In this document: positions 1 to 11,947 of the stretch, in pieces
How positions within the stretch are numbered: position 1 is the first letter of the stretch
How the letters are laid out: every line of letters starts with the position of its first letter
Assembly (NCBI GenBank): GCA_046331705.1
Contig: JAXLQJ010000012.1
Span: 1 to 64,000 of the forward strand
Direction of reading: 5' to 3'
DNA from: a bacterium
Lineage (GTDB): Bacteria; JADJOY01
DNA: 64,000 nucleotides
Notes under the pieces: generated by a model
Seen by the model: the letters and a program-made list of their open reading frames with translations, nothing else
Told to the model about the DNA's origin: nothing
Database searches by the model: none
Made by a program: the position numbers and the translations under genes

Positions 1-204
1 GCCGAGATGGCACGCGTAGAGCGGGAACGATCGCTCGCCGCACGGGATGCTCGCGAGGCGCTCGAGACGGATCAGCTCGGGCGCGGACGCGGCGAGCGCC
101 TCCAGCCGATCGAGCTCCGGCAGGGAGCGCAGCGCGAGCAGCTCGCGGATCGTCGCGCGCGAGTGCGGACGGCGCGGTGCGTCCGCCCGGTCGGAATCGG
201 TCAT
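1..204 (-). CDS. N-terminal part of a gene running off the left edge; possibly M14-family zinc carboxypeptidase
   Basis: ATG at 204, open to position 1 (MTDSDRADAP...LPELDRLEAL...GERSFPLYACHLG). The family guess rests on this N-terminal pattern only. Confidence 0.4.
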   Translation of the reverse strand, partial: MTDSDRADAPRRPHSRATIRELLALRSLPELDRLEALAASAPELIRLERLASIPCGERSFPLYACHLG

Positions 205-339
205 GGTCCGCGCCCCCGGAGCGAGCGCGCGGCGATCTCGTCCCTCACGACGGAGCGGGCTTACTCGCTCCGTGTGAAGACCGCGTGTCGGCAGCGAAAC
301 GTCGCGCGCGCCGTGCTCGGCCGCGCCGCGTTCGCGCGC

Positions 340-1548
340 TCAGAACTCGAGCGTCTGCGCGTAGATGTAGGTGGGCGCGAGCTGGCCTTGCAGCCAGAAG
401 ACGTCGGGGCCATCGACGGGGCTCGAGTAATCGTAGAGCCGAAACGTTCGCGCACCGCGCGGCACCACGCTCGGAAAGCAGGTGTCGCCCTTGGAAGGCA
501 GGTCCACGAGAAAGCTCACGGTGAGCGCCTCGCCGTCCACGCTCCACACCGAGCAACGCTTGGGGTGGAACCAATAATCGAGCTCGTAGACGCCCCATTT
601 CAGGATCTCGAGGGGCAGATCGTCGCGCCCGAGATCGTAGTTGCCGGTGTCGGTGACGTTGCGGCGGCCGATCAGGTAGAGCTCGTCGCCGACGCGAAAG
701 AGCAGCGGCGAGTCGTATTTCTTGGGGTCGGTGGCACAGGTCCAGCTCGTGATGTCTTCCTTGGGTGCGCGGCAGATCTTCGAGCCGAAGCCGTCGGAAT
801 CGCCTTCTTCGTTTCGCACCACGGCGTAGAGGTTGCCGGCGCGATCGAACTCGATGGTGGTCTCCGAGGTGCCGCCCTCGAGAACCACCGGCTTGGCGGG
901 ATCGAACGGGCGCCACGTGAGCCCGTCGTCGGTGGTCAGCAACCACACCTGAATCGGATCGCCCGAGAAGTTGTAGATGTTGTCGCCGCCCGTGTAGCCG
1001 ACCAAGAGCGGCACGCCGTCGTGGATCTTGGTGCGCCACGGGATGAACGTGTCCTCGAAGGTGCGCACCGGCTCCGTCCACTCGCCGGCGGCCACGCGCT
1101 TGGTCACGTACATGCCGCCGGGCACGAACGTGAGCGGGTTCTCGCCGAGCTGCGCGAAGTAGAGGAAGAGCTCGCCGTTCCAGGATAGAAAGCGCGGCTC
1201 GCGCAGGTCGCTCCCCATCTGGATCGTGGCCTCGTGGCTCCACGTGACCTCGTCCGTGGTGCTGAGGACGTAGAGCGTGGTGTCCGGCGACGCGAAGTGC
1301 GACGGCGCCGTGCGAAACGCCAGGAAGAGCCGGCCGTCGTGGTCGACGATGTCGAGATTGTTGTTGGACGTCTGATCGTGGACCTGCGGCGGCAATCCCG
1401 CGCTCGGCACCACCTGGGCGAGCGGACCGAGCGTGGGCACGACCGGCCCGGAAGACGACGAGCCCGAATCGCCGCAGGCCGCACCGAGCACCAAGGTGAG
1501 CCACGCGAGGAATGCGGGCGTGAAGCGTTTCGATCCGGTCGATGCCAT
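340..1548 (-). CDS. Secreted lipoprotein, probable beta-propeller (sialidase/BNR-like)
   Basis: ORF 340..1668, likely start ATG 1548. Hydrophobic stretch plus lipobox (LGAAC), and Asp-box-like motifs STTDEVTW and TTDDGLTW. Confidence 0.65.
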   Translation of the reverse strand: MASTGSKRFTPAFLAWLTLVLGAACGDSGSSSSGPVVPTLGPLAQVVPSAGLPPQVHDQTSNNNLDIVDHDGRLFLAFRTAPSHFASPDTTLYVLSTTDEVTWSHEATIQMGSDLREPRFLSWNGELFLYFAQLGENPLTFVPGGMYVTKRVAAGEWTEPVRTFEDTFIPWRTKIHDGVPLLVGYTGGDNIYNFSGDPIQVWLLTTDDGLTWRPFDPAKPVVLEGGTSETTIEFDRAGNLYAVVRNEEGDSDGFGSKICRAPKEDITSWTCATDPKKYDSPLLFRVGDELYLIGRRNVTDTGNYDLGRDDLPLEILKWGVYELDYWFHPKRCSVWSVDGEALTVSFLVDLPSKGDTCFPSVVPRGARTFRLYDYSSPVDGPDVFWLQGQLAPTYIYAQTLEF

Positions 1549-1895
1549 GCGTGCGCTCCCGCACCAGCGGCGGCACGGGAAGCGCGCGAGAGAGCGCCGC
1601 ACCCGCCGCCGCGAACGTCGTTGCCGAAGGTTACGCGTGCACGGCCGCCGCGAGCAACGAATCTCCACCCCGGCTCACGCGCTCGTGTGACGTTCGCGTC
1701 ACATGCACTCCTGGCGACTCAGCCGCGCGCCAGCGAATGCCCAACGAGCCGAAAATGAGGAGCCCCGCTTCGTCTTCGTCGTGTCCGCTGCCGACGGCGT
1801 TTGGTCCCACGAGTGTCCGTGGTGGGACCGTTCGTCGCCGGGTGTAGACTCGTTTTCACCTATCCGCGGCGACGCGCGCCGCACGGGAGCGAGAC

Positions 1896-2351
1896 ATGGA
1901 CACGCAAGCCATTCAGGCCCTCGCGGCGGAGGCCGTGAAGACGGTCGGCCCGTGGCTGCCGGTGCTGGTCAACAAAGCCGTCGAGAAGACCGGTGAGGCG
2001 ATCCCAGGAAGTGTCGCGAGCGCGTGGAAGGCGCTCGTGGTCCGACTCAAGGGCAAGCCCGAGGTGAGCACCGCCGTGGCCGATCTCGCCGCCAGCAAAG
2101 ACGACGCCGACCTGCAAGCCCAGCTCCGCGTCCAGCTCAAGAAGCTCCTGCTCTCGGATCCCGATCTCGTTCGGGAGCTTGGTGCGGCGCTCGGCCAGGC
2201 GGCGCCGCGCCAAACCCATCAGGTCGCCGTCCAGCACTCGCCGGGCGCCACCGTTGCTTCGGGCGACGGCGCGATCGCGGCGGCGCAGGGCGCAACGGTC
2301 ATCGTGGGCGCAGGTGATCGCGCACGCAGCGGGGACGAGCGCGAGCGATGA
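1896..2351 (+). CDS. Small helical protein (Bell/HeLo-like candidate effector) with C-terminal G/A/T/V-rich motif
   Basis: 151 aa, GGGAG upstream of the ATG, stop overlaps the next start (ATGA). About 100-aa amphipathic helical region, then GATVASGDGAIAAAQGATVI, which recurs in the two downstream genes. Confidence 0.75.
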   Translation: MDTQAIQALAAEAVKTVGPWLPVLVNKAVEKTGEAIPGSVASAWKALVVRLKGKPEVSTAVADLAASKDDADLQAQLRVQLKKLLLSDPDLVRELGAALGQAAPRQTHQVAVQHSPGATVASGDGAIAAAQGATVIVGAGDRARSGDERER

Positions 2352-5209
2352 GCGCCGAACGCGACAAGCAGCTCGCCACCGCCAAGAAGCTCTACGCGTC
2401 CGGCAAGATCTCGGCGAAGCAGTATCAGGCGCTCACGGGCACCCCCGTGCCCGCGGGGCTGAAGCGCCGCCCGTCGCCGCGCGTCCGGGCCGGGAAGGGC
2501 GCCACGGTGGCAGCGGGGGACGGTGCCCGAGCAGCCGCCCGCGACGCCACGATCATCGACCAGGTCCACGGCGACGTGTACGTCGGCAAGCCCGCCAAGA
2601 GCGCCCGCGAGGCGCTCAGGATCTATCGAACGGTTCTCGCCGCCACGACCGGTCAGCTTCCGCTCAGGGGCTTGCTGCCCGGCGCGAGCGACCCGTCCTC
2701 GGCACGACCGCTGCCGCTCGCGGACGTGTACGTGGCGCTCGACACGCGAGGCGGCGAGCCGGGACGAGCGGGCACACCCGACGAATCGGAGATCCTCGAG
2801 TCAGCGCGTCCCGGGCGCGAGCGACAGCGGCCGCTCTCGGTGCTCGCAGCGGTCGCCAAGCACCCTCGGCTGGTGCTGCTGGGCGATCCGGGCTCCGGCA
2901 AGTCCACGTTCTCGAATCATCTGGCGCTCGTGCTCTGCATGCACGCGCTCGAGCCGAAGCAGCGCTGGCTCGATCGGCTACCGCGCTGGCCGAAGGGGCT
3001 GGCGAGTTTGGTTCCGGTGTTGGTCGTGCTCAGGGACTTCGCGGCGGCACTTCCCTCGCCGCTTCCCGAGCGCGCGGTGCCCGAGCACCTCGCGAGTTTC
3101 ATTCGGCGCCGCCTGGCCGAGCAGAAGCTCGCGTTCGCCGGCGCGCCGCTCGAGCGCGCGCTCGACGAAGGCGACGCGCTCGTCGTCTTCGACGGCCTCG
3201 ACGAGCTGCCATCCAAGGATCAACGCCTCTTCGTTCGAGACGCGGTGGCCGCGTTCGTCGCTCGCTTTCCGAAGAGTCGCTACCTGGTCACCTGTCGAAC
3301 GCTCTCCTACCAGCCGCCGCCCACGCCCGAGAACGAGGAGGCCGAACCCGAGCCCGAACCCGATCTCAGGCTCGATCCGAAAGACTTCCCGAGCTTCGAG
3401 ATCGCGCCGCTCGACGACGCCAAGATCCACGGCTTCATCGAGCACTGGTATCGAGAGGTCGCGCGGATCGGCGCCATTGCCACCTCGGGGGTCGCGGGCG
3501 GCATCGCCAAGCTCAGGGTGGCGGTTCAGCGTCGCGATCTCGCCCGCCTTGCGCCCAACCCCCTGCTCTTGACGGTGATGGCATTGGTACACACCCATCA
3601 CGGCGAGCTTCCCGACGCACGCGCACGGCTCTACGAGGAGGCCATCAACATCCTCCTCTGGCGCTGGGACCAGACGCGCCAGGGACGCCGTACGCCGCCG
3701 ATCCGCGAGCGCTTGGCGGACGCGCAGTGCACTGAATCAGACCTGCTGGGAGTGCTGTCGCGACTCGCCTTCGATGTGCACGCCAACGTCGCCGACGCCC
3801 CGGACGGGGAAGCGGTTGCCGACATCGGCGAGCTGGATCTCATCAAGGCGTTGGCGCGGCTCAATCACGGCGACCTCAACTGGGCCGAAGGCCTCGTCGA
3901 AGCCATCAAGCTGCGGGCCGGGCTTTTGGTCGAGCGCCGTGCCGGCGTGTTCGCGTTCCCGCACCGAACCTTCCAGGAGTTCCTCGCTGGTTCGCACCTC
4001 GGCGGGCTCCCCGACTTCGCCGAGCGGAGCACTCGGCTCGTGGCAGCATCACCGATCTGGCGAGAGCCCGTGCTACTCGCCGTCGGGCGCCTCGTGCACG
4101 TCGGACGTGACCGAGAACGGCCGCAGGGTCTCATTGCCAATCTCTGCCCCGAGAGAGTGCGAGACGACGAGGCTGGATGGAAAAAAGTGTGGTTCGCTGG
4201 GGACGTGCTCGGCGAGATCGGCGTTGCGCGGATGCGTGGCACCGAGCTCGGGCAGGATCTCGCGGCGCGGGTTCAGGATCGAGTCGTCGCGCTACTTCGC
4301 GGCGGAAAACTCTCACCCCGCGAGCGCGCGGAAGCCGGCGTGACGCTGACTCGGATCGGCGACCCACGGCAGTCGGTGATGAGCGTCGATGGTCTCGAGC
4401 TGATCGAGATCCCCGCAGGGCCGTTCCTCATGGGCGACGAGTACCACCCGCTCGATCTCCCGAGCTTCCAGATCTCCAAGTTCCCGATCAGCAACGCGCA
4501 ATACGCCGAATTCGTGGAGGCGGGTGGGTACGGCGAAGCGCGCTACTGGAAAGAAGCGATCGCGGCCAAGATCTGGAAGAGCGGCCGGGTGACTGGCTGG
4601 GACGGCGAACCGCGTGATCGACCAAGTCGGTACCGCGTCCCATTCGGGCTCGCGAATCACCCGGTGGTCGGTATCACGTGGTACGAGGCGCTGGCCTTCA
4701 CGCGGTGGCTCACCGAGCGTCGCTGCGAGCTCGGCAAGATGGAGCCGGGTTCCGAAGTGCGTCTCCCCTCCGAGGCCGAATGGGAAAAGGCGGCGCGCGG
4801 CGGCCTCGAGCTTCGGCGCGGGGAACGGAACGACGACCCGAAACGCGAGTACCCGTGGCGGGGTGACATCGATCCGCAGCGTGCGAACTACCGCGACGCC
4901 GGAATCGGCGCCACCAGCGCTGTCGGATGTTTTCCGGGTGGCGCCAGCCCCTACGGAGTCGAGGAGATGAGTGGCAACGTCTGGGAATGGACGCGAAGTG
5001 CGTATCGGGACGTCCCGTACGATCCCGCCGACGGACGCGAGAAGCTCGATCAGCCGCGAAACGTGAGCCGCGTTCTTCGTGGCGGCTCGTACTTCCTCGA
5101 AGCTCCCTACGTTCGTGTCGCGGTCCGCGGCAGGTCCGGACCCGGCGGCCTCTACGGCAGCATCGGTTTTCGGGTGATTGTTTCGTCCCCATCCGACTCT
5201 GGACCCTGA
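2348..5209 (+). CDS. NACHT-type NTPase with C-terminal FGE-sulfatase (SUMF1)/C-type lectin-fold domain (NLR-like protein 1)
   Basis: Walker A GDPGSGKST, Walker B LVVFDGLDE, LVTCR, NPLLL, FPHRTFQEFLA. FGE motifs HPVVGITWYEA, RLPSEAEWEKAARG, MSGNVWEWT, RVLRGGS, IGFRV. Confidence 0.92.
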   Translation: MSAERDKQLATAKKLYASGKISAKQYQALTGTPVPAGLKRRPSPRVRAGKGATVAAGDGARAAARDATIIDQVHGDVYVGKPAKSAREALRIYRTVLAATTGQLPLRGLLPGASDPSSARPLPLADVYVALDTRGGEPGRAGTPDESEILESARPGRERQRPLSVLAAVAKHPRLVLLGDPGSGKSTFSNHLALVLCMHALEPKQRWLDRLPRWPKGLASLVPVLVVLRDFAAALPSPLPERAVPEHLASFIRRRLAEQKLAFAGAPLERALDEGDALVVFDGLDELPSKDQRLFVRDAVAAFVARFPKSRYLVTCRTLSYQPPPTPENEEAEPEPEPDLRLDPKDFPSFEIAPLDDAKIHGFIEHWYREVARIGAIATSGVAGGIAKLRVAVQRRDLARLAPNPLLLTVMALVHTHHGELPDARARLYEEAINILLWRWDQTRQGRRTPPIRERLADAQCTESDLLGVLSRLAFDVHANVADAPDGEAVADIGELDLIKALARLNHGDLNWAEGLVEAIKLRAGLLVERRAGVFAFPHRTFQEFLAGSHLGGLPDFAERSTRLVAASPIWREPVLLAVGRLVHVGRDRERPQGLIANLCPERVRDDEAGWKKVWFAGDVLGEIGVARMRGTELGQDLAARVQDRVVALLRGGKLSPRERAEAGVTLTRIGDPRQSVMSVDGLELIEIPAGPFLMGDEYHPLDLPSFQISKFPISNAQYAEFVEAGGYGEARYWKEAIAAKIWKSGRVTGWDGEPRDRPSRYRVPFGLANHPVVGITWYEALAFTRWLTERRCELGKMEPGSEVRLPSEAEWEKAARGGLELRRGERNDDPKREYPWRGDIDPQRANYRDAGIGATSAVGCFPGGASPYGVEEMSGNVWEWTRSAYRDVPYDPADGREKLDQPRNVSRVLRGGSYFLEAPYVRVAVRGRSGPGGLYGSIGFRVIVSSPSDSGP

Positions 5210-5210
5210 C
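4307..5210 (+). repeat. Copy 1 of a ~0.9-kb dispersed repeat (FGE/CLec domain coding sequence)
   Basis: Colinear with 7481-8382, with offset 3174 before about 7908 and 3172 after about 7935. Long identical stretches include 5028-5090 and 5158-5210. Confidence 0.9.
5078..5209 (+). other. Putative DGR variable region (VR1)
   Basis: Differs from 8250-8381 at 14 positions in 10 codons, all of which change amino acid. Flanked by identical sequence, and lies between RGGS and GFR of a CLec-fold domain. Confidence 0.75.
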
Positions 5211-5227
5211 TCGCGCGAGGATGAGCC

Positions 5228-8200
5228 ATGGCGTTCGATCTGGAGCGGTGGAAGGGGGAGCTGCGCGAGGGGCTCCGGGATTGGCCGGCGAGGATGAAGC
5301 TCGCGGGGGTCACCTCGGTGTATTCGTTTCTGTCCGCGTCGGCGTTGTGGCCCGTCGTGGAGGCGCTGGGGAAGGGTGAGTACTCGGCGATGCTCGCGCT
5401 CGCTGGCGTTGCGGGGAGCGTGGGGACGAATCTGCTGGCCAATCGCATCGAGGCTTGGCGAGGGAAGGCCGAGAACGATGTGGCAGGTGATCTGGAGCGT
5501 GCGCCGATCGAGCCCGAGTTGCGTGAGGCGCTCGACGCGATTCTGAATCAGCTCGGTGCGATCGAAGCCGCGCGTGCGGCAGCGCCTCCGTCCGAATGGG
5601 AGCGCCTGGTGGATCGCTTGGTGCAAGAGCTTCGCGAAGCGGGGAGCGGCGACCGCTTCGACGTCACGGTTGGCGATCATTCGACGGTGGCGGTCGGAAC
5701 GAACGCGATTGCGTTGGCCCGGGGCGCGACGCTCGTTCACGTCGACAACATCGGCCCGGGCGGCCGGGCGGATATCCGCATCGAGAACGACGGCGAGACC
5801 TCGCGTGTCGAGCGGGCGCGTGCGCACTACCTGGAGCGGTTGATCGGTTACTGCACCGCACTCCCGCTTCCGGCGCTCGGTGGCAAGGTGGGGGCGGACG
5901 AGGATCTGAGCCTCGACGATGTCTACGTCCAGCTCGATACGACGACGCGGATCGACGCCGACGGGCGGGTCGTGGGCGATCGGCCGATGAGCCCGGAGGA
6001 CGCGTCGCAGGTGCGGGCTCTCAGCGCTCTCGAAGCAGCGGGCCGAGCAACCCGCCTCGCGATCGTCGGTGGGCCGGGTAGCGGCAAGAGCACGTTCGTG
6101 AAGAGCCTCTTGGTCAAGGTCGCCCGCGCCCAGCTCGGACGTGGCGAGCCACTTGCCGAGTATTCCGCGGAAGACACGCCAGTACTCGTGACCTTGCGCG
6201 AGCTCTCCGACCGGCTGCTGGCAGTGAACACCCACGGCATGTCGGGCGATCGCGAGCGCGCCGCGCTGGCGGGAGCGGTGCGTGAGCTGGTGGAGGCGCA
6301 GGCGACGGCGTGGGAAGCGCCCGAGTTCGCAACGCCCCTCGGACGCGCGCTGACGACGGGCAAGTGCTTGCTGGTCCTCGACGGCCTCGACGAAGTGCCC
6401 GAGGTGACGCGACCGCTGGTTCGCAAGGCGGTGGATGCGGTGCTGCGTCTCTACCGGCCGGCGCGGGTGGTGGTGACTTGCCGCACACGGTCGTATCAAG
6501 GGGAAACACAGATCCCCGACTTCGATCGCCACGAGCTCGCGCCCTTCGACGACGAGAAGATCGAGGCCTTCGTCCGTGCTTGGTATCGGGCCCTGGAGAA
6601 GTGCGGGAAGTTTCTCGCCGACGACGCCCACCGGCGCGAAGCGGATCTGATCGCAGCGGCGGTCCACGATCCGAAGCTCCGAGAGCTGGCCGAGAATCCG
6701 ATGATGCTCACGAGCATCGCGATCATCCATCGCCAGAACGTCACGCTGCCCCGTGAGCGCGTGCGTGTGTACGCGCTGCTCGTCGATTTGCTGTTGCGCC
6801 GCTGGGAAGCCGAGCGTACCGGCCTCACGCCAGTGGATGCCGCCGCCGTGCCGGACAGGCTCACGGCGCTCTTGGCGGAGCCGGCCAAGCTGCGCGAGGT
6901 CGTCGAAGAGCTCGCCTTCGCCGCGCACGGCGGCGGCGCCAGCGGCGCACTCGCGGAGCTGACGCGCTCCGCTGCTCGGGAGCTGCTGGAGCGAAAGGAG
7001 TGCCTCGGCGATGTCGCGCTGGCCGAGGCGTTCTTGAGCTACATCGATTTCCGCGCCGGGCTCCTGAGCGGCTTGGGTGGCGAGGCGAGCCAACCGGCCG
7101 TCTATCGCTTCCCCCACCAGACGCTGCAGGAGTATCTGGCCGGCTGTCGGCTGCTGCGGGGGCTCACCAGCACGCGCGTTCGCCAGATCTTCGACAGTGC
7201 CAAGGGTGACGAGCGGTGGCGAATTCCGGTGCGCTTTGCCGCCGAGGAGCTGCTGCACAACACGCCGCGCAACGGCGATCTCGAGCTGATCGAGCTGGCG
7301 CGCTCCCTCGCGGGCACGCGGGAGGATTCGAGCGTCGAGTCACAGCGCGCGCGTCTCTGGGCGGGCGAGATGGTGGCGCTTCTCGGCGCCGAACGCGTCT
7401 CGAGCGACACGTCAGGTCCTGTGGACGGCGCGAAGTTCCTCGGCGAGACCCGGACAAACCTCGTTCGGCTGCTCGGAAGCAAGCTCGGCCCCATCGAGCG
7501 AGCCGACGCTGGCGTTGCTCTGGCGCGAATCGGTGACTCGCGAAGGGCGGTGATGAGCGTCGATCGCCTGGAGCTGGTCGAGGTTCCTGCTGGACCGTTC
7601 CTGATGGGAGACCGGTATCAGCGGCTCGATCTCCCGCGCTTCTGGATCTCCAAGTTCCCCATCACCAACGCGCAGTACGCCGCGTTCGTGGAGGCAGGTG
7701 GATACGGCGACCCGCGCTACTGGAAAGAGGCGATTGCGGCCAAGGCCTGGAAGGACGGACGGGTGACCGGCTGGGATGAGGAGTCACGCGATCGACCACG
7801 TCAGTTCCGCGTCCCATTCGGGCTCGCGAATCACCCGGTGGTCGGTGTGACCTGGTACGAGGCGCTGGCCTTCACGCGGTGGCTCACCGAGCACCGGCGC
7901 GCACTCGGAAGCTCTCACCCGAGGGCGAGGTGCATTGCCATCGGAAGCAGAGTGGGAGAAGGCGGCGCGCGGCGGCCTCGAGCTCGCGCCGGGGAAGCCG
8001 AACGAAGACCCGAAGCGCGAGTTCCCGTGGCTGGGAGCCATCGATCCCCAGCGCGCGAACTACGACGACACCGGAATCGGCGCCACCAGCGCCGCCGGAT
8101 GCTTCCCGGGTGGCGCCAGCCCCTATGGCATCGAAGACCTGAGCGGCAACGTCTGGGAATGGACGCGAAGCGCGTACCGGGGTCTTCCCTACGATCCCAC

Positions 8201-8381
8201 CGACGGACGCGAGAAGCTCGATCAGCCGCGAAACGTGAGCCGCGTTCTTCGTGGCGGCTCGTTCTTCAACGCTGCTCCCTTCGTTCGTGTCGCGGCCCGC
8301 GGCAGGAACGGACCCGCCTACCTCGACGTCAGCATCGGTTTTCGGGTGATTGTTTCGTCCCCATCCGACTCTGGACCCTGA
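5228..8381 (+). CDS. NACHT-type NTPase with N-terminal helical domain and C-terminal FGE/CLec domain (NLR-like protein 2), interrupted by two 1-nt deletions near 7908-7935
   Basis: GGPGSGKST, LLVLDGLDE, VVTCR, NPMML, FPHQTLQEYLA. The FGE domain continues through two frame changes (KLSPEGEV, then LPSEAEWEKAARG...IGFRVIVSSPSDSGP, stop 8381). The tail of the 1200-aa ORF to 8830 is out of frame. Confidence 0.85.
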
Positions 8382-8382
8382 C
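7481..8382 (+). repeat. Copy 2 of the ~0.9-kb dispersed repeat (FGE/CLec domain coding sequence)
   Basis: Colinear with 4307-5210 and 2 nt shorter. Confidence 0.9.
8250..8381 (+). other. Putative DGR variable region (VR2)
   Basis: See VR1. Retains two AAC codons (8268, 8307) where VR1 has CTC and TCC. Confidence 0.75.
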
Positions 8383-8565
8383 CCCTCTGTCCCCTGGCCT
8401 CTGGAGCCTCAGTCCGAGGCGCTTCTGCACCCGTGCGACTCCGCCACGAGGGCAGGTGGCAGGGCGTGCTACTCACGCGCCGCGGGATGGGTGGATGCGC
8501 CGCGCGCGCCGTGATCTACACTGGTCGCGCGACTCAACTCGACGCGACCGCCGCCGAGGACTCTC

Positions 8566-9750
8566 ATGGACGCCGCCGAGCTCCAACGCCTCATCCGAGA
8601 CACCGAGTCGGATCGGTGTGAGCGGACGCGGTCGCTCACCGACACCGACAAGTTCGCGGAAGCCATCTGTGCTTTCGCCAACGACAGGCCGCGGCACAAG
8701 CAGCCCGGCTACCTCTTCGTGGGCGCTCACCCGGACGGGACGGCCACGGGCGCCGAGATCACGGACCAGATCCTTCAGAACCTTGCGGCGATCCGGTCGG
8801 AGGGGCATATCCAGCCCCTTCCGGTCATGAACGTCGAGAAGTGGAACCTGGGCACGGGCGATCTCGCGGTCGTCGAGGTGTTTCCGTCCGACCTGCCGCC
8901 GGTTCGATACAAGGGGCGCATCTACCTGCGGGTGGGACCGCGTCGCGCGATCGCCAGCGAGGCCGATGAACGCGTGCTCAGCGAGCGCCGCGTGGCGCTG
9001 GCACGAACCTGGGACGCGCGACCTCATCCCCTGGCGTCGCTCGGAGATCTTGCGCTGGACATCTTCGCCCTGAGCTACCGGCCGATGGCGGTGGCGCGCG
9101 AGGTGATCGCGGAGAACGAGCGATCGATCGAGGAGCAGCTCGCCGCGCTGCGTTTGCTCGACCCCGCCACCAGCCGACCGACCAACGCAGCGGTCCTGCT
9201 CTTCGGCAAGGACCCCGTGGCGCTCGTGCCCGGCGCATACGTTCAATACGTCCGCTACCGGGGCCTCTCCGCTGCGGACGAACCGATTCGCGAGCGGCGA
9301 ATCTCGGGCGACCTGCTGACCGTGATGCGGGCGCTCGATCAACTCGCGCAGGAGCTCGCCGGGGAACGTCCGGAGCGGCTTGCCTCGCTCTCCGAAAGAA
9401 TCGTGGCTGCCTATCCCGCGGTTGCGCTCCACGAGCTCTTGATGAACGCCGTCATCCACCGCAACTACGATGGTTCGACGACACCGATCTTGCTGAGCGA
9501 GTTCGAGGATCGAATCGAGATTCAGAGCCCTGGCGGGCTTTTCGGTGATCTCACGCTCCGCGACTTTCCGATGCTCACGTCCTATCGCAACCCCATCCTC
9601 GCCGAGGCCGCGAAGGTGCTCGGGTTCGTGAACCGGTTTGGGCGAGGTATTGCGTTGGCGCAAGCGCAGCTCGCGCGGAACGGCTCGCCGCCCGCGCGCT
9701 TCGACGTCGAAGGGAACCACTTTCTCGCGGTGGTCCGGGCGCACGAATGA
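8566..9750 (+). CDS. AlbA_2 (Schlafen-like) domain fused to HATPase_c_4 (RecG C-terminal-like) domain
   Basis: ESDRCE...AICAFAND...GYLFVG at the N-terminus. Later ALHELLMNAVIHRNY, DRIEIQSPGG, YRNPILAE, FGRGI. GAGGA RBS. Confidence 0.85.
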   Translation: MDAAELQRLIRDTESDRCERTRSLTDTDKFAEAICAFANDRPRHKQPGYLFVGAHPDGTATGAEITDQILQNLAAIRSEGHIQPLPVMNVEKWNLGTGDLAVVEVFPSDLPPVRYKGRIYLRVGPRRAIASEADERVLSERRVALARTWDARPHPLASLGDLALDIFALSYRPMAVAREVIAENERSIEEQLAALRLLDPATSRPTNAAVLLFGKDPVALVPGAYVQYVRYRGLSAADEPIRERRISGDLLTVMRALDQLAQELAGERPERLASLSERIVAAYPAVALHELLMNAVIHRNYDGSTTPILLSEFEDRIEIQSPGGLFGDLTLRDFPMLTSYRNPILAEAAKVLGFVNRFGRGIALAQAQLARNGSPPARFDVEGNHFLAVVRAHE

Positions 9751-10757
9751 AGACCGTCGTCTTCTTCAACAACAAGGGTGGCGTGGGCAAGACGTCGCTC
9801 GCGTATCACCTGGCGTGGATGCTCAATCGCCTCGGTCGTCGCGTGCTCGCTCTCGATCTGGATCCGCAGGCGAATCTGTCGAGCGCGTTTCTCGACGAAG
9901 ACCGCCTGGAAGAGCTGTGGCCGGAGTCGGGCACTCGCCGCACGATTCTGGGCGCGCTCGAGCCGTTGCTCGAGCATCTTGGGGACATCGTCCCGCCGCA
10001 CGTCGAAGTGATCGCCGACGGGCTGGGTCTCGTTCCCGGCGACCTCGGTCTCAGCCTCTTCGAGGACCGGCTCGCGGAGGCGTGGCCGAAGTGCCTCACC
10101 GAGAAGGCCGCGGACGCGGCGGATGCATTCCGTGTAACCACGTCGTTCTACCGAATCGCGGCGGCTGCCGCGTTGGAGCTCGGCGCGGAGCTGGTCTTGA
10201 TCGACGTCGCACCGAGCCTCGGCGCCTTGAACCGCGCGGCGCTCGTCGCCGCGGATCACGTCGTCGTGCCGTTGGGGGTAGACCTCTTCTCCCTTCAGGG
10301 GCTGCGGAACCTCGGACCGACGCTGAAGACGTGGCGCGCGGGATGGGCGCGACGCGTGATTCACGCCCCGGCGACCTTGGGTGCGGTCCCCAGCGGCCGG
10401 ATGCACCCCATTGGTTATGTCGTGATGCAGCACGCGGTGCGCGGCGACCGCCCTGTGAAGGCGTACCAGCGCTGGGTAGAGCGGATCCCCGAGGCGTACG
10501 TCACGGAGCTCGGCGAAGACGAGCAGGTGGCTGTCGATCCCGATCCAAATCGCCTCGCGATGCTCAAGCACTATCGAAGCCTGATGCCGCTGGCGCAGGA
10601 CGCGCGGAAGCCGATGTTTGCTCTCACCCCCGCAGATGGGGCGCTGGGCGGTCACACCAAGGCCGTTCAGGACTGCTACGCGGACTTCGAGCGATTGGCG
10701 CGGGAAATCGTCCGCCGCGTGGAGACGGACGCAGCCCGGCACCTGGCGCGACCGTAG
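9747..10757 (+). CDS. ParA/Soj-family ATPase
   Basis: FFNNKGGVGKT deviant Walker A, DLDPQANLS, LIDVAPSLG. ATGA overlap with the upstream gene. Confidence 0.9.
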   Translation: MKTVVFFNNKGGVGKTSLAYHLAWMLNRLGRRVLALDLDPQANLSSAFLDEDRLEELWPESGTRRTILGALEPLLEHLGDIVPPHVEVIADGLGLVPGDLGLSLFEDRLAEAWPKCLTEKAADAADAFRVTTSFYRIAAAAALELGAELVLIDVAPSLGALNRAALVAADHVVVPLGVDLFSLQGLRNLGPTLKTWRAGWARRVIHAPATLGAVPSGRMHPIGYVVMQHAVRGDRPVKAYQRWVERIPEAYVTELGEDEQVAVDPDPNRLAMLKHYRSLMPLAQDARKPMFALTPADGALGGHTKAVQDCYADFERLAREIVRRVETDAARHLARP

Positions 10758-11251: not shown

Positions 11252-11947
11252 TTGAGCAAGCCGCAGGTTCTGCTGGTCGACGACGATCCGAGCCTGCTCG
11301 ACGTGCTGTCGATGGCGTTCGGCGATGCGGGCTACGACGTGGCGACGGCCGAGGACGGCTCCGAGGCGCTCGAGAAGCTCGCCGTCCGCAAGCCGGACTT
11401 GCTCGTCACCGACATCAACATGCCGGTGCTCGATGGTTTCACGCTGCTCAAGCGGCTGCGCGACAAGCGGCTCGAGCTGCCGGTGATCCTGCTCACCTCG
11501 CGCGACAACGAGATCGACGAGAGTCTGGGTCTCGAGCTGGGGGCCGACGATTACGTGGCCAAGCCGTTCAGCACGCGGGTGCTCTTGGCGCGGATGGCGG
11601 CGTTGCTTCGGCGCGAGCGGTTGCGGGCGAGCGGCGAGGAGCCGAGCCCGATGATCGCGTGCGGGGCGCTCGAGCTGCGCGTGGACCACATGCTCGCCCG
11701 CTACGCCGGCCACGCGATCGAGACCACGGTGACCGAGTTCCGGCTGCTGGAGGCGTTCGCGCGGCGTCCCGGCGTGGTGCTCTCGCGCGAGCGGCTCATG
11801 GAGCTGGGGCGCGGCGACGACTCGATCGTGGGCGATCGGATCATCGACACCTACGTGCGCCGCTTGCGCCGCAAGCTCGAGGCGGTGGAGGCCGGCTTCG
11901 ACCGGATCGAGACGGTGATCGGCGCCGGCTATCGCTGGAAGGCGTGA
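11252..11947 (+). CDS. OmpR/PhoB-family response regulator (CreB/ChvI-like)
   Basis: C-terminal part of ORF 9638..11947. TTG start after GAGGA. VLLVDDD, DINMP, GADDYVAKPF, winged-helix end IETVIGAGY. Confidence 0.9.
   Translation: MSKPQVLLVDDDPSLLDVLSMAFGDAGYDVATAEDGSEALEKLAVRKPDLLVTDINMPVLDGFTLLKRLRDKRLELPVILLTSRDNEIDESLGLELGADDYVAKPFSTRVLLARMAALLRRERLRASGEEPSPMIACGALELRVDHMLARYAGHAIETTVTEFRLLEAFARRPGVVLSRERLMELGRGDDSIVGDRIIDTYVRRLRRKLEAVEAGFDRIETVIGAGYRWKA

Follow-up and report, generated by a model that had tools for sequence, protein, structure and literature searches.

The question raised by this locus is whether two short, nearly identical stretches at the 3' ends of a tandem gene pair are the work of a DGR and, if so, where the template (TR) and reverse transcriptase (RT) that wrote them reside. 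The window, meaning the whole stretch of DNA analysed, comprises 64,000 nt of contig JAXLQJ010000012.1 (assembly GCA_046331705.1). Probably the two stretches are DGR-written variable regions (VRs) at the C-terminal tips of tandem NLR-like sensor genes, in what would be a degenerate or remote target locus, because the cognate TR and RT are missing from the assembly. A sequence-only reading had proposed adenine-directed mutagenesis from a template acting in trans; its assignment to DGR-type VRs is borne out by the class of gene, the TR codon positions, the downstream motif and a sister pair in two species, whereas no template acting in trans was found and the argument from counting adenines does not hold.

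The tandem genes and the small upstream ORF

Gene 1 (2348-5209, forward strand, 953 aa) is intact and encodes a STAND/NACHT NTPase that ends in an FGE-sulfatase domain (C-lectin fold), placed by Pfam at residues 684-944 of 953 (E = 4.2e-49); Pfam matches to NACHT, AAA_16 and nSTAND3 all fall below cut-off, and a weak NCBIfam match is to the NACHT antiphage protein EruA. Gene 2 follows after a spacer of 18 nt, and the two targets abut. Its N-terminal part in frame (5228-7930, forward) carries a NACHT NTPase (Pfam E = 8.7e-10) and the first half of the FGE domain, spanning FGE-sulfatase profile positions 4-110, and the second half with VR2 (7935-8381, forward; profile positions 112-254) lies in another frame. 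In the assembly gene 2 is thus frameshifted, being 2 nt shorter than gene 1 with 1-nt gaps near 7908 and 7936 in the DNA alignment. One X1 contig has a net gain of 2 nt at 7901-7932; two of its deletions recur in gene 1 as aligned there, its insertions are different, and it may stem from an allele of gene 2 that is intact or from a further paralogue. The gene 1 protein forms a singleton cluster, gene 2 products are absent from the record, and a search of protein databases for population variants turned up no fragment sharing more than 64% identity with the final 150 aa.

By tblastn the N-terminal 680 residues of the two genes are about 33% identical and the C-terminal 270 aa about 80%, and in the last 183 nt identity is complete outside the variable sites; such a rise toward the 3' end is expected from repeated 3'-end overwriting. 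The idea that gene 2 is a pseudogene serving as a silent cassette, donating to gene 1, was set aside: adenines are present in each copy at sites where the other has none, and both genes of a sister pair on contig C43 are intact.

Upstream of gene 1 the ORF list gives a small ORF (1896-2351, forward, 151 aa) whose stop overlaps the gene 1 start, with homologues upstream of the C43 sister gene and also on contig C56. Pfam gives no match for it, and an Atlas feature search points, as a lead only, to HetE-N-containing clusters (0.93). Its C-terminal 20 residues line up with residues 51-70 of gene 1, 15 positions being identical and 18 similar, a match not significant alone (BLASTP E = 0.65), and a stretch similar to this motif can be read by eye in both gene 2 and the C43 sister gene. 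The small ORF may encode a cell-death effector partner of the sensors, in which the variable lectin face would likely sense a ligand and the NTPase oligomerise, with a death or defence output downstream. DGR-diversified sensors may signal via an amyloid-type motif held in common with the small upstream protein, and this is compatible with the mobile DGR core considered below.

The variable block and what could have produced it

At the end of gene 1 a near-identical block (5028-5210, forward) matches 8200-8382 over 183 nt save at 14 sites, all of which fall inside 67 nt, the flanking 116 nt having none. From first to last differing base the VR1 core covers 5091-5157 (forward, ten codons), and its counterpart, the VR2 core, covers 8263-8329 (forward); the VR1 core corresponds to codons 915-937 of gene 1, which places it at the C-terminal end of the C-type-lectin/FGE fold. 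The codon pairs listed by the sequence-only reading are reproduced exactly (TAC/TTC, CTC/AAC, GAA/GCT, TAC/TTC, GTC/GCC, TCC/AAC, GGC/GCC, GGC/TAC, TAC/GAC, GGC/GTC), and so are the sameness of the flanks 5028-5090 and 5158-5210 and the tally of 14 substitutions, 13 of which fall at codon position 1 or 2 and all of which change the amino acid. The variation is thus of the kind confined to the first two positions of AAC-type codons, the other 169 nt of the repeat being free of differences, and both copies have NNC at nine of the ten variable codons, as had also been claimed, where 427 of the 953 codons of gene 1 overall end in C. Ordinary divergence of the paralogues further upstream is likewise confirmed: in the control stretch directly upstream of the block (4770-5027 versus 7942-8199) 43 of 258 nt differ, 26 of them at position 3, with 19 synonymous and 16 non-synonymous codons, and the codon-position bias separates block from control (Fisher p = 5e-4).

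In the proposed mechanism a TR RNA would be copied by an adenine-error-prone RT, the cDNA would overwrite the last ~100-140 nt of each target gene, and the outcome would be non-adenine positions identical in both genes and AAC-type codons randomised. Unlikely, but the best surviving of the rivals, is an account with no retroelement at all, in which ordinary gene conversion swaps the 3' ends of the two paralogues while the ligand-contact codons are kept apart by diversifying selection. It gains from the failure to find a TR or cognate RT, and from the variable positions being the fold's binding face, which is also a target of selection. It gains too from the extent of the copy identity, which as read from the alignment begins 39 nt before the A-free stretch and takes in many unchanged adenines there; these imply either that gene conversion between the paralogues contributes or that the TR adenines in those 39 nt are under selection. 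Nor does the share of sites with an A in one copy, on which the earlier reading had leaned, discriminate, being 9 of 14 in the block and 19 of 43 in the control (p = 0.23). Two copies mutagenised independently would be expected to show an A in one copy at about 50% of sites anyway. However, conversion tracts would wipe out differences in the middle of a block of 183 identical nt, and the contrast between a block free of synonymous change and a neighbouring 258 nt with 19 synonymous codons, together with the NNC form of nine in ten variable codons, also tells against this account.

Further evidence on the choice between gene conversion and a DGR comes from the C43 pair and the orthologues of that pair in a second species (G002), for which the surrounding DNA is ~84% identical. 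Across a 160-column block of these pairs 133 columns are invariant and 27 variable, 23 of the 27 lying at codon position 1 or 2 and eight having three or more bases, and upstream of the block 63 of 153 columns vary. Single sites with three or four bases, and 133 of 160 columns held invariant between flanks only ~84% identical, speak against gene conversion, and the invariance of the non-variable VR bases across species argues for a template that was active after the species split. DNA searches found no third copy of the C43-type VR in G002, and none in G001-G005 either.

Close homologues are moreover demonstrable DGR targets, which again counts against gene conversion. Among the 80 nearest FGE-domain loci of the GTDB species genomes, eight have repeat pairs in which at least 80% of mismatches fall at an A of one copy; six of these eight hold an RT, five of the six RTs show the IGxxTSQ motif, and in such homologous loci RT, TR and VR stand side by side. 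The 31 aa of the VR from GGS to GFR align gap-free with six canonical TR peptides, whose codons opposite the ten variable ones carry an A at either of the first two positions in 87% of cases, and those opposite the 21 invariant ones in 38% (p = 0.003). The variable positions are at the same time ligand-binding positions of the fold, and so their coincidence with TR adenines is compatible with selection as well.

The homologues also have in common with the window a target-side repeat motif. A run of short CTCTGG-like units (8350-8434, forward) straddles the end of gene 2, starting within its final codons and extending beyond the stop, and the first part of this run is also found after VR1 (5178-5210). 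Counted as [CT]CTG[GAT] per 85 nt, there are five units after VR2 and three after VR1, where the window background has a mean of 0.29 and a 99th percentile of 2. The same count is 2-7 for nine VRs of five canonical DGR loci, with a sixth locus (L097) scoring 1, and 0-1 in the TRs of five of the six canonical loci, the TR of L073 having 3. To judge from these counts, the CTCTGG-like repeat after the window VRs is a target-side motif common to canonical targets and mostly absent from their TRs. In the Bordetella phage model, as outlined in part of PMC5758913, an IMH and then a GC-rich inverted repeat lie downstream of the VR; folding of 126 nt after each window VR found no stable inverted repeat (z = -0.25 and +1.82), VR2 being followed by a 5-bp stem only.

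Where the template and reverse transcriptase may be

The source genome assembly has 118 contigs, 8.17 Mb and an estimated 95.67% completeness, and absence from it does not prove absence from the organism. That the window holds neither a third copy nor an RT, as first noted, is correct, and the third copy is absent from the whole assembly as well; the statement on the RT holds within the window but not assembly-wide, one DGR RT lying on another contig (C10). For the template supposed to act in trans, nothing was found in the assembly: blastn and blastn-short with both VRs returned no template copy, and beyond VR1 and VR2 no further copy of the CGTGGCGGCTCG...GGTTTTCGGGTG type was seen in the 118 contigs. 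An ungapped scan of the same contigs with N at the variable sites gave as its best non-self match 60/79, which is a paralogue, and a six-frame scan of the assembly for Asn-rich TR-like peptides returned the C10 TR only. DNA searches of the five other genomes of the phylum (six in the set examined, with the source) and of 35 further genomes found no cognate TR, and blastn against plasmid and phage collections found no template. IUPAC scans of genome, metagenome and viral contig collections gave 0 matches for a TR, these being exact patterns that miss any TR with further adenines and the public collections being ones that may omit records of the source genome or its near relatives. In all collections searched, then, no TR was seen that differs from the VRs only at adenines. 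Searches for RT remnants by tblastn with five DGR RTs match C10 only, and no Avd homologue (PF05635) was found.

The C10 element looks active by its own sequences. Its RT (C10 181022-182029), with LPIGALTSQ and YMDD motifs, is the sole DGR-type RT in the assembly, and its TR (C10 182069-182196) has two VRs of its own, with mismatches at TR adenines in 16 of 17 cases for VRa and 14 of 16 for VRb. Together with the remote targets more than 100 kb away that are documented for cellular DGRs in part of PMC5758913, these properties are what commends the idea that this DGR writes the window VRs in trans. Yet retrohoming keeps non-adenine positions faithfully, and because of this the C10 TR cannot be the source: it agrees with the fixed VR positions at 51 of 79, fewer than a mere paralogue, and blastn shows no similarity between it and the window VRs. 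Its own targets lack a CTCTGG-like motif (0 and 0), and no second TR stands beside the C10 RT. The prospect of C10 serving the window is thus very remote, and on these comparisons may be taken as effectively refuted. The C10 TR was also compared with FGE genes on contigs C14, C111, C1 and C66, none of which was accepted as a remote target of it; for C14, only 15 of 36 mismatches fall at TR adenines.

Most improbable of all is that the identical block arose in assembly, as a repeat collapsed or made chimeric in a metagenome-assembled genome: the assembly is in 118 contigs, and Logan contigs of four runs (80% likeness, positions 1-9000) stop at 5181-5183 and 8353-8355, where the 3' flank common to both copies has its k-mer edge, but each copy is bordered on either side by flanks of its own and 14 differences lie inside the block, contigs from four studies cover both unique flanks, and the architecture recurs on C43 and in the independent assembly of G002.

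If the two stretches are indeed DGR-written VRs, their writer could still be present in the population, unassembled, strain-variable or mobile, a tentative view to which we give slightly less than an even chance. That the writer was instead lost recently, leaving the tips frozen, is possible though rather doubtful. More specifically, a DGR core of RT and at least two TRs might sit on a mobile or strain-variable element and service chromosomal NLR-like pairs in trans, a speculative arrangement that we hold to be improbable. A mobile core of this kind would explain why both VR families occur here, and the C43-type family in a second species, with no template in independent assemblies, and also why the non-variable bases are identical across species whose flanks have diverged by ~16%.

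Relation to known systems and wider meaning

Were the DGR reading correct, a little-sampled activated-sludge phylum would carry hypermutable NLR-like sensors of a type known from multicellular and aggregate-forming bacteria, and the range of a proposed form of adaptive immunity would be extended. Of the 24 runs listed for this locus, 20 are activated-sludge samples, from 13 studies. Taken alone, the locus is an unremarkable case of a class already published. The source genome has two VR families and the sister species one, with no template in the assembly, and the argument for a template active after the species split makes the missing core worth hunting in long-read data. For annotation, RT-first DGR finders miss such targets.

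Among published arrangements, the Bell/BASS NLR pairs (Dyrka et al., bioRxiv 10.1101/2020.01.06.895854) resemble the window, in the part of that account available, in having an upstream small protein and an NLR-like protein that hold in common, at the C-terminus of the one and in the N-terminal region of the other, a ~20-residue G/A/V/T-rich motif. The window motif differs in being a weak match (E = 0.65) not assigned to BASS1-10, with the Bell domain not confirmed by Pfam, and in the available text of Dyrka et al. 'sulfatase', for a sulfatase/FGE sensor domain, has 0 occurrences. The remote DGR targets of Treponema and Lineage 4 (Wu et al. 2018, NAR, PMC5758913), so far as the accessible part describes them, are likewise chromosomal, in a non-phage setting and far from the RT, but there a target counts as remote through a TR at another place in the genome that differs from it only at adenines, and for the window VRs no such TR was found.

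A closer likeness is with L032, a canonical DGR in a Nitrospirales MAG (VR 5377-5503, TR 6062-6188, RT 6344-7456, second VR 11797-11921). It is the second-closest match, with an FGE domain 49% identical, the VR length and frame as in the window, and a CTCTG-type repeat run downstream of its VRs, again as in the window. Mismatches of its VRs fall at TR adenines in 21 of 21 and 24 of 25 cases, and mutual identity of the VRs continues ~50 nt past the end of TR homology. In L032 a TR and an IGxxTSQ RT lie within 1 kb of a VR, both absent from the window, and in L032, L038 and L040 the RT and TR sit between two targets where those of the window abut.

Closest in class are the clade 5D cellular DGRs, described in the available part of Dore 2024 (PNAS, PMC10907252) as STAND-NTPase/C-lectin 'putative antigen sensors', commonly with two STAND-CLec targets whose N-terminal extensions have no known domain. 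The window differs in having no cognate RT or TR to place in the RT tree, in the frameshift of one target and in its host, which belongs to a phylum of six genomes in the set examined. By Pfam and tblastn the window pair nevertheless has the features by which that source defines a clade 5D-type STAND-CLec locus, and the same source describes 'degenerate' loci with neither RT nor TR. Structural variants that carry an RT/TR cassette are reported for DGR 7 of Thiohalocapsa PB-PSB1. No TR in the reference genome matches the VRs of DGR 7, and PB-PSB1 also has degenerate loci whose VRs lack a TR in that reference.

The variable 3' ends of two tandem genes

We hold with good confidence that the variable stretches of two tandem NLR-like sensor genes are variable regions (VRs) written by a diversity-generating retroelement (DGR), the writer being absent from the assembly. 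Gene 1 (2348-5209, 953 aa) encodes a STAND/NACHT-type NTPase whose last 260 residues make up an FGE-sulfatase domain (E = 4.2e-49), a domain with the C-type-lectin fold. Gene 2 follows after an 18-nt spacer, and its first frame, from 5228, contains a clearer NACHT than that of gene 1 (E = 8.7e-10). The FGE domain of gene 2 is split, with only its first half in this frame and its second half in a different one, at 7935-8381. Relative to gene 1 one base is absent near 7908 and one near 7936 (2 nt short within about 30 nt), and so the frame of gene 2 is broken in this assembly. One contig from run X1, which differs from gene 1 in sequence, has a net +2 nt in the 7900-7940 region, and so an intact gene 2 allele may exist. 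Identity between the two genes is about 33% over the N-terminal 680 residues and about 80% over the C-terminal 270, and the last 183 nt show no difference outside the variable sites; judging from this gradient they are old paralogues with 3' ends kept alike.

Between 5028-5210 and 8200-8382 (183 nt each) ten codons differ by 14 substitutions, just as the sequence-only reading had counted them; 13 of these fall at codon position 1 or 2, and each of the ten codons changes its amino acid. The flanks it described as identical are without difference over 63 nt and 53 nt, the 169 non-variable bases all agree between copies, and further upstream, where it saw ordinary synonymous differences, the preceding 258 nt differ at 43 sites, with 19 codons differing synonymously. 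Third positions account for 26 of the 43 differing sites in that upstream control, and the contrast in codon position with the variable block is significant (p = 5e-4). Its count of C-ending codons also holds, with nine of the ten variable codons ending so in both copies as compared with 45% of gene 1 codons overall. However, the presence of A in one copy at 9 of the 14 sites, which had been thought telling, does not differ significantly from the control (19 of 43, p = 0.23); were two copies mutagenised independently, no more than about half of the sites at which they differ would be expected to have A in one copy. No stable inverted repeat was found after VR1 (the gene 1 copy) or VR2 (the gene 2 copy), which, like the broken frame of gene 2, counts against an uncomplicated DGR account. 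No near variants of the window proteins were found in protein databases.

Homologous loci and a sister pair

The comparison drew on GTDB species genomes, whose 80 closest FGE domains are 30-49% identical and belong to Chloroflexota, Nitrospirota, Proteobacteria and other groups, Thiohalocapsa among them. With a simple finder of template repeats (TRs) and VRs, set to accept two repeats when 80% or more of their mismatches lay at adenines of one of them, such pairs were recovered at 8 of the 80 loci, a lower bound since many of the 80 are short contigs, and a reverse transcriptase (RT) is also present in 6 of these 8. The second-best match, L032, has a VR (5377-5503), a TR (6062-6188), an RT (6344-7456) and a second VR (11797-11921), with 21/21 and 24/25 mismatches at TR adenines. 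Five of the six RTs carry the LPIGN(L/Q)TSQ and Y(V/M)DD motifs, that of L033 being unmatched by the regular expression used. The window VR peptide GGS-GFR (31 residues) lines up gap-free with the peptides of six canonical TRs. At the codons lying under the ten variable ones 87% of the TRs have A in the first or second position, versus 38% under the 21 invariant codons (p = 0.003). This overlap fits DGR writing, although selection on the binding face would predict the same. The earlier proposal of adenine-directed retrohoming from a template in trans is supported as to the DGR type of the VRs, but not as to the template, no cognate one having been found in the assembly, the relatives or the public collections scanned.

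Runs of a roughly 7-nt CTCTG-/TTCTGA-like unit stand downstream of the VRs of L032, L033, L038, L040 and L073, from several phyla, and have no counterpart at the TR in four of those five loci, the exception being L073. Counted as [CT]CTG[GAT] per 85 nt, the nine VRs of these loci score 2-7, the single VR of L097 (RT and TR present, no repeat run) scores 1, and five of six TRs are followed by 0-1, the TR of L073 by 3. The window VRs score 3 (VR1, units at 5178-5210) and 5 (VR2, 8350-8434) against a window background with mean 0.29 and 99th percentile 2, and the VRs of the DGR that the genome carries on contig C10 score 0. Such a run may serve in target recognition or in recombination. A limited literature text search turned up no published description of a VR-side run, and the passage on 'tandem repeats' in excerpts of PMC5758913 concerns AAC runs inside TRs.

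A second tandem STAND-FGE pair, with intact genes and its own VR-like pair, lies on contig C43 of the same genome (G000:C43:7137-13170, minus strand), and the orthologous pair is found in another species of the genus (G002:C90:12880-21632, DNA about 84% identical). The four copies form a block of 160 columns, 133 invariant, including about 40 nt beyond the stop, and 27 variable; in the upstream stretch 63 of 153 columns vary. Codon positions 1 and 2 account for 23 of the 27 variable columns, 8 of the 27 have three or more bases, and at least one A occurs in 19 of the 23 variable columns of the core as counted from the alignment. No third copy of this VR type was found in either genome.

These four copies bear on the strongest rival, that ordinary selection and gene conversion explain the VRs. 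Identity of the window copies starts at 5028, 39 nt before an A-free stretch that resembles a canonical TR 5' end, and runs through many adenines unchanged in both copies, and so gene conversion between the neighbouring genes probably contributes to the shared 3' ends. As a full account, however, this explanation is distinctly improbable: the two sister pairs vary at the same codons, with up to four bases at single sites in a block otherwise frozen across species, a pattern that point mutation and selection would be hard put to produce.

The search for a writer

The assembly holds two RT genes. One, on contig C2 (G000:C2:163545-165164, a 540-aa open frame), is retron-like (LPQGAPTS, YADD) and unrelated to the window VRs. 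The other (C10, 181022-182029; LPIGALTSQ, YMDD) belongs to a complete, apparently active DGR (G000:C10:180147-183232), with a TR of 26 adenines 40 nt downstream of the RT (182069-182196) and two VRs, 180147-180274 and 183106-183232, with 16/17 and 14/16 mismatches at TR adenines; its targets are small FGE-domain paralogues. That it writes the window VRs in trans is very improbable, and its TR is ruled out as their template, agreeing at only 51 of the 79 fixed window-VR positions where even the C43 paralogue agrees at 60. That the window pair is an artefact is hardly credible.

In agreement with the earlier failure to find a third copy, a scan of the whole assembly gave no window-type TR, nor was any further TR-like sequence, RT remnant or Avd homologue found in it. 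No window-type VR copy was found in the other genomes of the phylum (six in total in the GTDB set used, in two genera and one family), and a window-type template had no match in public collections. DGR-type RTs of relatives sit on very short stretches (G002:C611, at most 2.5 kb; G001:C270, 3.6 kb examined), which suggests that DGR cores are hard to assemble in this group. If the VRs are DGR-written, the tentatively preferred possibility is that the writer persists, being unassembled, strain-variable or mobile, as suggested by the perfect identity of the non-variable bases and the C43/G002 invariance across species. Recent loss of the writer is somewhat less likely, and is favoured by the frameshifted gene 2 and by the template missing from two independent assemblies.

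Setting of the locus and known systems

The window covers the initial 64 kb of its contig (C12), in an assembly of 8.17 Mb (118 contigs, 69% G+C), and the contig has 2.3 kb ahead of gene 1. Window 1-131 overlaps, with 2 mismatches, the final 131 nt of contig C77, and so C77 probably precedes the window. Near this end the plus-strand ORFs 7-1188 and 1234-1758 look spurious, and a minus-strand ORF (340-1668, 442 aa) looks like the real gene at that place. Of the 24 listed runs, 20 contain the locus or part of it; they come from 13 studies, for the most part on metagenomes of activated sludge, wastewater or sludge. Directly downstream of gene 2, window 8566-10757 holds a Schlafen AlbA_2 / HATPase_c_4 protein, with PADLOC matches to pAgo-associated PNTD-type proteins (E = 2.5e-18), and a ParA/MinD-like ATPase, after which come a response regulator, a histidine kinase and a GGDEF protein; the neighbourhood may be a defence-island context.

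Directly upstream, a 151-aa ORF (1896-2351), whose stop overlaps the start of gene 1, ends in GATVASGDGAIAAAQGATVI, to which residues 51-70 of gene 1, GATVAAGDGARAAARDATII, are identical at 15 of 20 positions, a statistically weak match (E = 0.65). The shared motif, about 20 residues and G/A/V/T-rich, falls in the N-terminal region of gene 1 (window 2348-2560), and like stretches occur in gene 2 (window 5650-5760) and in the C43 gene. The ORF has no match in Pfam and an Atlas lead to HetE-N (0.93). In the function proposed for genes 1 and 2 the variable lectin face would bind ligand and the NACHT module would oligomerise. As a lead, the ORF and gene 1 might be an amyloid-type signalling pair. 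The motif common to the ORF and the gene 1 N-terminus resembles the effector/NLR amyloid-motif (Bell/BASS) pairs in excerpts of Dyrka et al. (10.1101/2020.01.06.895854).

As to the variable regions themselves, excerpts of Dore et al. 2024 (PMC10907252) describe clade 5D DGRs as commonly having a pair of targets that combine a central STAND NTPase with a single CLec domain. They also describe 'degenerate' loci without machinery in PB-PSB1, and some targets for which a matching TR at another locus acts in trans; for DGR 7 no TR in the reference matched the VRs, and long reads showed variants with an intact RT and TR. Remote targets, over 100 kb away from the RT, are documented in excerpts of Wu et al. 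2018 (PMC5758913). Since two-target STAND-CLec, degenerate and remote loci are thus published, so far as these excerpts go, the window locus belongs to an already described kind.
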